This document shows, piece by piece, positions 8,329 to 54,729 of a stretch of 64,000 nucleotides of DNA; position 1 is the first letter of the stretch; each line of letters begins with the position of its first letter. The notes beneath the pieces were generated by a model. The model was given only the letters and a program-made list of their open reading frames with translations. It made no database searches and had not been told where the DNA came from. The position numbers and the translations under genes are program-made. Source of the DNA: Eledone cirrhosa (lineage: Eukaryota); NCBI GenBank assembly GCA_964016885.1, contig OZ024745.1, positions 29,264,001-29,328,000 on the forward strand. Direction: 5' to 3'.

Positions 8329-8752
8329 AACGAAGCAAGTGTGGTAAGGAACCAGATGGACCATAACGCACCAGAGTACTCAATACTTAGGGTAGTAGAG
8401 TGGGTAATAGGAAAATGTTAAATCCCGACAGCAGAGCTCAAGCAGTTTTGACAGCTATTTCTGGACTGGTGGGTGTAATGAAACTAGAGCTGGGTGGAAA
8501 AGTCGGGATAAGGCGTGGTAGGGTCGGAAAGTGCTCTACTACGGAGGTAGGAGCTAGATAACGAAGGAAGTGTGGTAAGGAACCAGATGGACCATAACGC
8601 ACCAGAGTACTCAATACGTAGGGTAGTAGAGTGGGTAATAGGAAAATATTAAACCCTGACGGCAGAGCTCAAGCCATTTCAACGGTTTTTTCTGGACTGA
8701 AATAGCCGTTGAAACAGCTTGAGCTCTGCCGTCGGGGTTTAACATTTTGCTA
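8329..8752 (-). mobile_element. Non-autonomous PLE-like element: two tandem ~140-bp units plus an inverted partial unit
   Basis: 8329-8467 is repeated at 8559-8698, and 8699-8752 is an inverted copy. Flanked by (TA)n. Same family as 40931-41125 and 54541-54729. Confidence 0.65.
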
Positions 8753-8799
8753 TATATATATATATATATATATATATATATATATATATATATATATTA

Positions 8800-8997
8800 T
8801 AAAGAGTCAGGACCTTGGCGGCTGAGCTCTTGATGTTTCAACAGCTAGTTCCAGTCTGGAACTAGCTGTTGAAACAGCAAGAGCTCAGCCGTCGAGGTCC
8901 CAACTTTTTATAATATAACCATACTCTACTACCCCAAGTATCGAGTACTCGTTTGAGTAATGGTCTAACCAGTTTCAAACTGAATCCATTCGGACTT
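8800..8997 (+). mobile_element. Diverged member of the same fold-back family
   Basis: Inverted arms centred on ttccagtctggaa, then a tail ctctactaccccaagtatcgagtact homologous to 41055-41080. Confidence 0.6.
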
Positions 8998-10207
8998 ATA
9001 TATATATATATATATATATATATAAAACTTCCAAACTTCCACACATAAAACCATATCAAAACAGGAATCACATTCAACATCCTTAAATGCTCTTTTTATC
9101 TTATCTTAAATATCTATTTAAACTTACGACAATAAAACTGCAACCACTATCTATAAAAACATTTTATCTCCAGCAGGACAGTCCCAATCTACTCACAACA
9201 ATAAAAGAACAGTGTATAGACTCTTTGTCACCAGTAATAATAAAATACCAAACAAAGGTGCAATAATGTAGATGCTGGAATAAATAAATCCATTATCTCT
9301 GAACCTTAATATAATATACATTAATAACAATTATCTCAACTTTACTAAAAAAGTGAAGACACACTCCTACCTGCTATAAACCATTAAACACTTTGGATAT
9401 GCCATATGTTAATTTTGCCTGAATACTGCTGTTTACGCAATGGCTATATAATTTCTTGAATCCAATATGCTGATTAGACCACTATCTTTATCAAGAGTCT
9501 CTTACTAATTCTCAAACAATGATTGATCTTCTACCACAATGCCCAACTACTGGTTTATCTCTGCAGAATTACCCAACTTTGGCTCCAAATTTTATTTACC
9601 AACCAAAGAGCTGTAAAATGCATATTTTTTTCAACACAGTGCTCAGTAGTTTTGTGAATTATATAATCCCGCTCTAGAGTAGGTCATTGTGCAATAATAG
9701 CAAAACATGTGGAAAGGGTTATCCAATAAAAAACAACTCCACAGCCTTTGTAATAATTCCACCATCCCCTGCTCACTATTTATATACACTGGTGATCTAC
9801 ATGATAAGCACACCCAGTACACACTGTTAAGTGGTTGGTGATAGGAAGGGTATCCAGCTGTAGAAAGCTTTCCAAACAAAGGGTTGGGAGGACCCTTTAG
9901 TTGTGTCAAAGACATTACAACCTCTCCTGTGCACTTGGTACAACATGAGACTATGTAAGCGAGATGCAGATTCCTGGCCTGTCTGGGAAATCAGTAGCTC
10001 ACTTCAATACTGACTTGGTCTATGTAGACCCGTCCAACCGTTGCTAGCTGGGAAAGTGGACATTAAAACAATGGTGATGATGATATATATATATATATAT
10101 ATAGTTATATCTGTATCTATAGACGGTATCAATGTGTATTTTTAATATGTAGACATGTAAACATGCCAGAAAATACGAATTTCCCTGTAAATTGAGAAAA
10201 TGATAAA

Positions 10208-10254
10208 TACCTTTAATTTATTTTTAGATCTAGTTGGGTCCTCATCAGAAGGTG
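10208..10254 (-). ncRNA. Degenerate minimal hammerhead ribozyme (GAAA mutated to AAAA) within a short repeat at about 10103-10345
   Basis: Minus strand: acacctt CTGATGA ggacccaactagatct AAAA ataaatTA aaggtat. Paralog of 27521-27569. Confidence 0.5.
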
Positions 10255-10351
10255 TGTAAATCATCTTAACAGCCACAAGGAAACATATATATAATGGACT
10301 TATATATCTATTGACTCTTAGTAGTATTTCTGAAATGGACGAACTAAGTTG

Positions 10352-10710
10352 CATCATCATCATCATCATCATGATTTAATGTCTGTTTTCCACACTTGAA
10401 TGGGTTAGATAGATTGTCATGTTATGTGATTAGTCAGGTCAGGTGACCATATCTTGCTTATACAGATCTATTTTTTTGGCTTGGTTTCTACAGCTGGATG
10501 CCCTTCCTAACATCAATCACATAAGTGTGGACTGGGTGCTTTTTTATCATGTCACCAGCATGATCACCTTACAGGGTGGACTGGATGTTTTTGTTGTGAA
10601 ACCAGCACTATCACCTTACAGGGTGGATTGGGTGTTTTTGTTATGAAACCAGCACTATCACTTTACAGAGTGGACTGGGTAGTTTTGTTGTGAAACCAGC
10701 ACTATTATAG
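10352..10710 (-). mobile_element. RTE-tail/SINE derivative with about four tandem 48-bp modules
   Basis: (CAT)n start, ctacagctggatgcccttcctaac motif, repeated acagggtggactggg...accagcactatcac. Confidence 0.7.
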
Positions 10711-10795
10711 TACACACACATTCACATATGTATTTATTTAGTGTTGATGTTTGTGAGAAAAGTACTTAAAACCATAGTAGAGATTAAGTTTTTTT

Positions 10796-10944
10796 AAGGT
10801 TTAGTCAGTGTCCTGTTAATCTGGAGTTTTCTCTTGCATGTTTACATGGTTATAAGACATTTTGAATTTCATGGGTGTATAACTGTATAACCCTGTAAAC
10901 ATACAGGAGAAATACCAGAGTAACAGGGCATTGATTTGAGCTTA
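10796..10944. repeat. Degenerate inverted repeat (about 57-bp arms)
   Basis: taaggtttagtcagtgtcctgttaatctgg...catgtttacatggttata versus tataaccctgtaaacat...ccagagtaacagggcattgatttgagctta. Confidence 0.65.
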
Positions 10945-52215: not shown

Positions 52216-52317
52216 ATATATATATATTTATATATATTTATATATATATATATATAAATAAATATATATATATATATATATATATATTTATTTATATATA
52301 TATATATATATATATAT

Positions 52318-52878
52318 ATTGTTATACTTTGGGAGGGTCATGTTGCCAATAAGAAACACACGCACCAGTTGCTTTCACTTCAATTTATTATAATAAATTT
52401 ATAATAAATTTATAAATTTATAAACTTCTGGTTGGTTGGTTGGTTCCACAACCAGATAGTTGTTTATATATTGTCATAGTTCTTTCGTCACACACTCTGT
52501 GACCTCTTCAGTGACTGGGGATTCCTTTCTTTGTTTCTGTGCCTCTCCTTTGTTCTGTCCTATGCCATTTTGTTTCTGGCGTAGGACAGAACAAAGAAGA
52601 GGCACAGAAACAAAGAAAGGAATCCCCTGTCACTGAAGAGGTCACAGAGTGTGTGACGAAAGAACTATGACAATATATAAACAACTATCTGGTTGTGGAA
52701 CCAACCAACCAACCAGAAATTTATAAATTTATTATAAATTTATTATAATAAATTGAAGTGAAAGCAACTGGTGCGCGTGTTTCTTATTGGCAACATGACC
52801 CTCCCAAAGTATAACAATATCGGTTTCAACACACGATTTCAGATAAAGAATCTTGCTAAACAAATTCAGAAACGAAAT
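52318..52878. mobile_element. Head-to-head PLE pseudo-LTR pair with no coding part; hammerheads at 52472-52516 (-) and 52628-52672 (+)
   Basis: About 245-bp inverted arms homologous to 48897-49148; the right arm carries an extra 60-bp tail. Confidence 0.85.
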
Positions 52879-52948
52879 ATATATATATATTTATTTATAT
52901 ATATATTTTATATATATATATATATATATTTATATAATATATATATAT

Positions 52949-53161
52949 ACAGTCCACGCTGTAATGTGGCCGTGTAGGCAACACAGTAAAAACCTCCCAG
53001 CCCCACACTGTAAATGTGGTTGGTGTTAGGAAGGGCATCCAGCTGTAGAAAACCCGCCAGACAGTCCTATGCGAGCAAGACAACCACTCTTGCCTCAAGT
53101 GGGAAAACCCCCGTCCAAACCCATGCAAACGTGGAACATGGACGTTAAACGTTGATGATGA
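52949..53161 (+). mobile_element. RTE subfamily 1 3' tail fragment
   Basis: Matches 44610-44825. Confidence 0.88.
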
Positions 53162-53463
53162 TATATATATATATATATATATATATATATATATATTTAT
53201 ATATATATATATTTATATATATATATATATATATATATATTTTAATAAATATATTTTTATATATATATTTTAATAAATATTTGCTCTACGGTTCTTATAT
53301 ATTTGATATATATTTATCCTTATCGAGCCCTCTTGGATTTTAGTCTTCAAATTTATATATATATATATATATTTATATATATATTTATATTTATATATAT
53401 ATTTATATATATATTTATATATATATTTATATATATATTTATACATTTATTTATATATATATA

Positions 53464-54503
53464 TTGCCCCAAATGCAAACAATGGGTACACAAGAGATGT
53501 AGCGGGATCTCAGGAAGCTTAATTAAGAATGTAGGATTCACATGCAGCAGCTGTGCTGAAACAGCAAGCAAACAGCCACAGGAAACAAGTACCACCAATC
53601 TCTGGGAGGGCCCTGTAGAAACAGTAGACAGCTTCTGCTACCTAGGTGACCGAATTAGCAACGGAGGTGGGTGCTCAGAAAGTACAATAACTAGGGTAAG
53701 AACGGGATGGAAGAAGTTTAGGGAACTACTACCACTGCTAGCTGCAAAAGGCTTCTCCCTCAGAATGAAAGGCAGACTGTATGATGCGTGTATCCGAACA
53801 GCGATGTTGCATGGTAGTGAGACCTGGGCGCTGAAGGTGGAAGACTTACGTAGATTAGAGAGAAACGAAGCCTGCATGCTCCGATGGATGTGTAACAGTA
53901 ATATACGTGAACGACAATGCATAAATGAATTGAGAGAGAGACTGAGCATAAGAGGAATCAAATGCTGCGTGCAGGAGAGGCGGTTACGCTGGTATGGACA
54001 TGTGATGCGTATGAAGGATGACAGCTGCATAAAAAGGTGCAGAGCACTAGAAGTTGATGGAAACCGCGGAGTGGGGAGACCCAAGATGACTTGGGATGAG
54101 GTGATAAAAGCCGACCTTACCCAACTACACCTCTCAAAGTCAATGACACACGACCGTGACTTCTGGCGTCACGCAGTAATACAGGGTACCCGACCTCCCA
54201 TGGGTACATGCTGAAGCATATAAACAATATGCCCCCCCCCCCACCGCAAGGTGGTCGTGGAGGTGCCACGGCAAAAAAGCACCCAGCCCACACTGTAAAG
54301 TGGACGTGTAGGCGCCACGAAAAAGCACCCAGCACTCACTGTAAATGAGGTTGGTGTTAGGAAGGGCATCCAGCTGTAGAAATCAAGCCAGATCAGTTCC
54401 TGTATGAGCAAGGCATGGTCAGCCGACCAGACACTGCCCACAACAGGACAACCCGTCTAACCCATGCTAGCGTGGAAGAACGGACGTAAAACGGTGATGA
54501 TGA
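53464..54503 (+). mobile_element. 5'-truncated RTE LINE (subfamily 2)
   Basis: [40 protein letters not shown]; inverted paralog of 50271-51310. Confidence 0.93.
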
Positions 54504-54540
54504 TATATATATATATATATTTATATATATATATATATAT

Positions 54541-54729
54541 GAATGAGTAGGACCCCGACGGCCGAGCTCAAGCCGTTTCGACGGCTAATTCTGGACATTA
54601 TTAGCCGTCGAAACGGCTTGAGCTCAGCCGTTGGGTCCTACTCGTTTCTATTACCCACTCTACTACCCTAAGTATTGAGTACTTTGGTGCGTTATGGTCC
54701 ATCTGATTCCTTACCACATTTCCTTCGTT
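54541..54729 (+). mobile_element. Fold-back PLE-like element (family of 40931-41125)
   Basis: Inverted arms around ctggacat and the same tail; (TA)n flanks. Confidence 0.72.

Follow-up and report, generated by a model that had tools for sequence, protein, structure and literature searches.

Penelope-like elements (PLEs) that carry an endonuclease leave insertions of a recognisable outline. In the description by Craig et al. 2021 (PMC8557442), the element is accompanied by an inverted copy, a tail of 30-40 bp is often present at one end only, the targets are (TA)n and the mechanism is called open. Gladyshev and Arkhipova 2013 (PMC3846280) describe the tail as an optional feature of one inverted pseudo-long terminal repeat (pLTR) and propose self-priming. 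Where these two accounts and a third (Schostak et al. 2008, PMC2377424) treat such canonical units, the optional or one-sided tail goes uncounted and the mechanism is left open. Here we analysed a 64,000-nt stretch of the Eledone cirrhosa genome (OZ024745.1:29264001-29328000, forward strand; hereafter the window), which contains ten head-to-head insertions of four PLE families, F1-F4. In each unit, one arm stops at a family-specific point, S, and the other continues to a second point, T. We propose that these insertions probably arose by obligate twin priming, in which staggered nicks in the two target strands would each be primed at their own fixed internal site of the same RNA.

Two further systems are close to the one described here. 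PAc (Poseidon of Anolis carolinensis), studied in vitro by Frangieh et al. 2024 (PMC11167929), has two internal start sites that bracket the tail, and both target strands are cut and extended. It resembles F1-F4 in these tail-bracketing start sites and in its AT-rich targets, and its protein is predicted to form a dimer. PAc belongs to a different clade and has a much shorter tail, and the model set out for it ends with second-strand synthesis and repair, without tying the two sites to the two ends of an insertion or to inverted arms (PMC11167929). In LINE-1 twin priming, as outlined by Kojima 2010 (PMC2912911), both nicks prime on one RNA, producing a head-to-head inversion and a target duplication, as we propose here. 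It is one of three LINE-1 insertion types, in which one primer lies at the RNA 3' end and the other internally, and the junctions show microhomology (PMC2912911). Our literature search found no strict one-of-each rule and no twin-priming model stated for PLEs, and either may have been stated earlier. Already known are the PLE architecture in outline (inverted arms, one-sided tail, (TA)n targets) and the clades of which F1-F4 are ordinary members. What appears to be new is the strictness of the S+T pairing, the length of the tails and the linked evidence that two internal priming events are coupled.

Results

Two-armed insertions almost always pair one S end with one T end

The original prediction, made from the sequence of the window alone, listed ten loci at which both outer boundaries are an element's 3' region in opposite orientations. 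When the window was compared with itself and mapped to full-length copies that occur naturally in the same genome, all ten intervals proved to consist of head-to-head arms of F1-F4. The tail between S and T measures 80 nt in F1, 62 nt in F2, 167 nt in F3 and 137 nt in F4, in good agreement with the overrun of 50-170 bp predicted for the longer arm. Over the 3.0 Gb genome, the exact junction motifs occur 37,512 times for F1, 32,303 for F2, 2,607 for F3 and 5,640 for F4, and reversed control patterns gave 0-1 matches.

Ends were sampled by position along contig C1 using motifs upstream of S, so that neither end type was favoured. The prediction of a split between an internal and a terminal stop was borne out in that end positions were sharply bimodal in all four families, the 334 non-internal ends comprising 169 S, 163 T and 2 that could not be classified. 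Since the ends are sharply bimodal in four families and the reversed controls are nearly empty, the pattern is not due to chance. Ten further copies were internal and ran past T into the ORF (open reading frame) side, and such tandems were found in all four families. T thus does not mark a fixed 3' end of the RNA, and the predicted start of the long arm at the RNA 3' terminus is not supported. Both start sites of the anole PLE are also internal in vitro (PMC11167929).

All 124 classifiable head-to-head pairs joined one S end to one T end (39 in F1, 36 in F2, 23 in F3 and 26 in F4; binomial p = 5e-38 against 0.5), and 2 more pairs were unclassifiable. This supports the predicted arrangement of two fixed start positions, with one priming event from each side of a cut target and cDNAs meeting head to head. 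When the patterns of one F1 subfamily within one spacing window were counted across the genome, 2,780 units were S+T, 11 S+S and 14 T+T, or 99.1% S+T. Compared with canonical PLE units, the tail is here 62-167 nt long and is one-sided in 99% of the two-armed units of this subfamily. Inspection of eight S+S loci showed that five adjoin another F1 copy and one has mirrored flanks. No shared cause was found among eight T+T loci inspected; a T+T case obtained by similarity search, L018, has mirrored flanks.

When the first 30 positional hits of each family were counted by hand, motif-defined pairs accounted for 23 in F2, 25 in F1 and 18 in F4. In several apparent S singles, the T arm was contained wholly within the tail; others abut (TA)n or unrelated DNA directly. 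A metagenome scan yielded 78 related loci, two of which were informative. Both, L341 and L346, follow the S+T rule: they are distinct two-armed insertions of a single family, in which one end lacks a tail and the other has one of about 80 nt. At L300 the tail of this family precedes the ORF. The metagenome loci L334 and L365 were dropped as inverted pieces without an identifiable end. L239 (G000:C1:56974500-56984490) consists of two near full-length F3 copies head to head over 9.3 kb; its outer ends are one T and one S, with extra repeat units at the S end.

Insertions mostly lie in (TA)n and can carry target duplications

Of the 124 insertions, 109 have alternating TA runs of 8 nt or longer on one side and 87 have them on both. 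Such runs make up 13.4% of the bases in the outer 1-kb flanks of 60 loci, and the predicted enrichment of (TA)n in the flanks is therefore present. Every S and T site terminates in AT or ATA, which by complementarity can pair with a (TA)n primer.

Target duplication was assessed on 114 insertions with exactly defined ends, of which the 19 with interrupted flanks on both sides are informative. An exact direct duplication of 9-15 nt, counting the terminal AT, was present in 11 of these 19; in 5,000 shuffled controls, the mean was 0.58 and the highest count 4. One of the 11 lies at a non-(TA)n site. The duplications and the endonuclease ORFs described below therefore suggest staggered enzyme nicks with a 3' end on each flank, and we infer that these nicks would be made by the element's own endonuclease.

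Arms resemble each other and often end together

In 78 of 81 insertions, an arm was more similar to its own partner than, on average, to the arms of other insertions; the partner was strictly the nearest arm in 18 and tied for nearest in 31. This similarity fits a single source variant. Among 122 mapped junctions, 103 were clean. The S arm extended further 5' in 26, the T arm did so in 19, and the two ended within 15 nt of each other in 58, in keeping with the prediction that either arm may be the longer one. No one arm can thus be a copy of its partner throughout, which speaks against a simple fold-back.

The 5' ends of the two arms coincided more often than under permutation in all four families, also away from positions where 5' ends pile up; for F3 the coincident ends away from pile-ups numbered 6 of 19 compared with 0.6 expected (p = 1e-4). 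Relative to S, 46 of 70 F1 arms end at -53 to -66 and 29 of 42 F4 arms at -205 to -226, and internal pieces restart at these pile-up positions. The pile-ups contain motifs that we take to be a TATA box plus an initiator-like element in F1, an initiator-like element in F4 and a YY1-like site in F2, and we read them as probable transcription starts. A hammerhead cut as the main 5' stop is not supported, as the F1 and F4 pile-ups lie well upstream of the predicted cut.

The head-to-head microhomology sought at the junctions was not enriched in a test on 34 scorable junctions, which is a weak one: of 90 junctions scored, 56 were classed as inserts, and many of these are artefacts caused by sequence divergence relative to the reference. 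The 34 non-insert junctions had a mean of 1.29 nt compared with 0.81 nt under a blunt-join null (p = 0.10 for at least 2 nt and 0.29 for at least 4 nt). Homopolymer runs of A or T were observed at the head-to-head junction, adjoining the putative RNA 5' end, in L151, L279, L197 and G000:C1:129391087, and perhaps reflect untemplated addition or slippage.

One or more extra 7-9 nt units of terminal sequence were present at 9 of 39 F3 S ends (excluding two rows in which the repeat itself had been matched again), at 2 of 34 T ends and at 2 of 34 F4 S ends, one of the F4 cases being doubtful. None was seen at F1 or F2 ends. We read these units as the likely trace of slippage and recopying at initiation, which would occur at both kinds of end. 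A shared RNA fold joining S and T was not found in the four tails (z = 0.43, -0.38, -1.46 and -2.25) or in L346 (z = -2.28).

F1-F4 belong to known PLE clades

The original prediction attributed the loci to several unrelated families. Judged by their ORFs and motifs, all four are instead autonomous PLEs, and their architecture is a described PLE trait. Three are Hydra-type (F1, F3 and F4) and one is Neptune/Nematis-type (F2), as assigned by motif list. Partial tandems forming pLTRs (L109, L240, L248 and L260), an inverted 5'-truncated copy and a tail are all present. The tandem copies encode ORFs of 786, 919, 832 and 759 aa with reverse transcriptase (RT) and C-terminal GIY-YIG-type motifs; the endonuclease end of F4 is visible in L244 and broken off in L248. 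Pfam gave two weak matches, both below cut-off (RVT_1, E = 9e-4, for F2; GIY-YIG PF01541, E = 0.007, for an F3 fragment), and no match for three ORFs. At E<=1e-40, relatives numbered 2,057.

A hammerhead-like motif lies upstream of S in every pLTR, detected by motif scan in F2 and F3 and by eye in F1 and F4. Rfam at the gathering threshold returned no hammerhead, its sole match being tRNA-like. The F1 motif, read by eye, is a U3-A8 variant of the kind described by Cervera and De la Pena 2014 (PMC4209133), who also describe hammerhead pairs 100-700 bp apart on opposite strands.

The ORFs of F1, F3 and F4 contain RWR, DKT, a CNCx5C linker, CNLC/CRLC, CxH and a C-terminal endonuclease, with no CCHH. 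As characterised by Craig et al. 2021 (PMC8557442), the Hydra clade shares this motif list, the hammerheads and the (TA)n targets with these three families. It differs in having RWK where F1, F3 and F4 have RWR, and its units are given as "generally <3 kb", compared with 3.1 kb for F1, 4.2 kb for F3 and 6.6 kb for F4. Neptune and Nematis are marked by a CX2-5CxxC linker ahead of a C-terminal GIY-YIG with CCHH. The F2 ORF (L109) has a CIDKKCITC linker and C-C-H-H residues, which make it Neptune/Nematis-type, the two clades not being told apart. In L109, F2 also has a frame of 369 codons (4832-5938, minus strand, stop to stop) with a probable start codon about 20 nt before S; this frame continues across the tail, overlapping the beginning of the RT frame.

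Annotation of the window

The window is rich in (TA)n and other simple repeats, and its LINE- and SINE-like repeats appear to be of cephalopod character. The ten two-armed units within it are listed in Table 1. The unit at 8329-8752 is two-armed, as predicted, but its structure is more complex than had been described, with an extra tandem piece between the arms. This piece is likely the product of a template jump after run-off.

Table 1. Arms and motifs of the F1-F4 insertions in the window (signed positions in the last column are relative to S)
Feature	Position	Strand	Details
F1 (Hydra-type PLE) T arm	8329-8467	-	Tail end at 8329, 5' end at -60; 88% to natural copy L260
F1 extra tandem piece	8471-8701	-	+165 to -63
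F1 S arm	8699-8752	+	Terminates in (TA)n
F1-related subfamily, 73% identical to F1	8800-8997		S arm about 8800-8852 (-), T arm 8853-8997 (+)
Diverged F2-related stub	16190-16310		S arm about 40 nt (-), T arm 16237-16310 (+); from alignments
F4 (Hydra-type) T arm	16355-16557	-	+137 to -67
F4 S arm	16570-16750	+	-181 to 0; 100% identity between arms over 68 bp
F3 (Hydra-type) long S arm with 3' untranslated region/pLTR	28428-30549	-	Includes GIY-YIG-type endonuclease end of the ORF, 29956-30522
F3 T arm	30550-30913	+	-196 to +167; 100% identity to other arm over 198 bp
Hammerhead-like motif, F3 pLTR	30658-30708	+	Mirror copy 28466-28516 (-); from motif scan
F1 stub	40931-41127		S arm 40931-40985 (-), T arm 40987-41127 (+); 99-100% to L260
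Diverged F2-related unit, T arm	from 46959	-	Reference tail matched only to +47
Diverged F2-related unit (46959-47862), S arm	to 47862	+	Endonuclease remnant 47190-47444
F2 (Neptune/Nematis-type) T arm	48038-48142	-	+62 to -42
F2 long S arm	48138-49150	+	Endonuclease remnant, pLTR, minimal hammerhead 48946-48992
F2 S arm	52316-52578	-	Hammerhead 52471-52517
F2 T arm	52577-52880	+	Hammerhead 52627-52673
F1 stub	54537-54731		S arm 54537-54596 (-), T arm 54600-54731 (+)

Another F4 T arm (-194 to +139) lies within (TA)n at 40344-40680, without a visible partner arm. Three hairpins of 95-200 bp (17267-17466, 39930-40024 and 54814-54970) adjoin TA-rich DNA and match none of F1-F4; they are possibly two-armed stubs of other PLE families. 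Copies of a long interspersed nuclear element (LINE), in which the RT is followed by a PHD-like finger and which we take to be RTE-like, have (ATC)n/(TGA)n ends and likewise lie in (TA)n at 42701-44837 (+), 50233-51827 (-), 53465-54539 (+), 30978-32061, 33266-34016 and 49264-49941. Minisatellites of 47-56 bp units, similar to the 3' region of local LINE and short interspersed nuclear element repeats, occupy 20723-20978, 22479-22964 and 26209-27108. The segments 35987-38144 and 44838-46960 form a direct duplication of 2.2 kb (90%), containing a 0.6 kb element with the end ...GGCAGCCACC at (TA)n; the same end occurs beside other loci too. An assembly gap of 200 N lies at 39705-39904 within a large (TA)n region.

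Discussion

The S+T pairing, the target duplications, the relations between arms, the coincident 5' ends and the repeats at priming ends are features of the PLE copies themselves, and in our model they would arise as follows. Nicks made by the element's endonuclease would lie 9-15 nt apart on the two target strands. Reverse transcription would start at S from one of them and at T from the other, probably on a single RNA molecule, and the T-primed enzyme would pass S by strand displacement. Both cDNAs would halt at the RNA 5' end by run-off, the RNA starting at the pile-up positions, or would stall, and host end-joining would then link them head to head with little or no microhomology. The single RNA, the displacement, the stop at the transcription start and the repair step are the parts that we infer. 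In most events, priming would likely take place at the S/T pair close to the 5' end of a transcript driven by the pLTR, which would account for the abundant hairpin stubs of 100-500 bp, and priming at an S/T pair further downstream would result in long or full-length arms. It is plausible that a protein dimer holds the two sites.

Integration of F1-F4, as reconstructed from their copies, is thus like twin priming but not like its L1 form. In LINE-1, the internal site varies and the arms hardly overlap. In F1-F4, both sites are fixed and internal, the arms usually overlap and microhomology is not enriched.

Several observations weigh against obligate twin priming. The evidence consists of insertion scars throughout. 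The pairs were sampled preferentially from the first listed positions, so that the proportion of insertions with two arms cannot be read from them; by hand count, one-armed ends without a motif-defined partner in view made up 7 (F2), 5 (F1) and 12 (F4) of each family's first 30 positional hits. The F1 subfamily count includes 25 symmetric units, and 8 of the 19 informative flank pairs have no exact duplication. Arm identity could also be explained by two RNAs of one source locus or by gene conversion between arms, and one F2 arm pair is 14.5% apart. The F2 5' pile-up is weak, with 8 of 56 arms near -270, and the transcription-start reading rests on putative promoter motifs. In the PAc experiments in vitro, no start-site difference between strands was seen, so that no coupling of strand to site is reported (PMC11167929).

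A two-subunit complex could instead carry two RNAs from one source locus, its asymmetry setting one subunit to S and the other to T. Such a complex accounts for the S+T pairing and the target duplication, and it explains overlapping arms with no need for strand displacement. For the anole protein, an AlphaFold2 dimer is reported (PMC11167929), and arm similarity cannot separate one RNA from two of one locus. We nevertheless consider it unlikely. Coincident 5' ends away from fixed sites are easier to obtain with one template, and two identical RNAs offer no obvious cause of strict asymmetry, whereas one RNA supplies exactly one S and one T per pLTR.

Alternatively, after a single priming event, the cDNA, or an antisense template, could fold back or prime itself and so produce the inverted arm; the second fixed end would mark where the other target strand captures second-strand synthesis. 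Self-priming was proposed by Gladyshev and Arkhipova 2013 (PMC3846280), and the 58 near-symmetric junctions, some of them within small palindromes, would suit it. However, the remaining 45 of 103 junctions are asymmetric, with differences that can reach kilobases and can favour either arm (S 3657/T 101; S 767/T 3368). Extra repeat units at S and at T ends also argue against a fold-back, as does the finding that S- and T-like sites are both start sites in vitro (PMC11167929). We regard this route as decidedly improbable.

The mechanism put forward in the original prediction, in which RT patches spontaneous cruciform breaks in (TA)n with one end primed at the RNA 3' terminus, has very little in its favour beyond the strong (TA)n preference and the thought that the endonuclease might recognise cruciforms. 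Patching that is independent of an endonuclease expects no target duplication, but exact 9-15 nt duplications were found in the majority of informative cases, one of them outside (TA)n, and GIY-YIG-type endonuclease ORFs are present in four families. T is internal, and at the S end of L341 and L346 there is no (TA)n run. Assembly artefacts or chimeric fold-back reads can be practically dismissed: although no short read or contig spans a whole locus and a few symmetric units have mirrored flanks (L018 and L284), artefacts would be expected to show symmetry and mirrored flanks, whereas the ends are asymmetric and family-specific, the arms differ by 0-14%, target duplications are present, and contigs and raw reads from independent Illumina short-read data, none of which covers a whole window locus, show S ends followed by (AT)n as well as opposite-strand joints.

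Whether obligate twin priming is also the normal integration route of PLEs in general is, in our estimation, evenly balanced. Such a route would have one RNA with two programmed internal start sites, a different one for each target strand, no second strand made by the element, and telomerase-like slippage with recopying of a short part of the template at priming. If true, inverted arms, tail and hairpin stubs by the tens of thousands would all be due to one mechanism. PLE integration, with its inverted arms and tail, is named as open by Craig et al. 2021 (PMC8557442) and is only partly answered by the in vitro work (PMC11167929). The 99% one-of-each rule in one subfamily, and the exclusively S+T pairs sampled in four families and two clades, are a constraint for any model. 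For an in vitro PLE system, obligate twin priming predicts that the two strands of one target molecule use different start sites. Many of the 2,607-37,512 junction motifs per family are short hairpins, which annotation could mistake for miniature inverted-repeat transposable elements and which could yield double-stranded RNA. PLE RTs are described as the closest mobile relatives of telomerase (PMC8557442), so that internal priming at fixed sites, with repeats from slippage, is relevant to the origin of telomerase.

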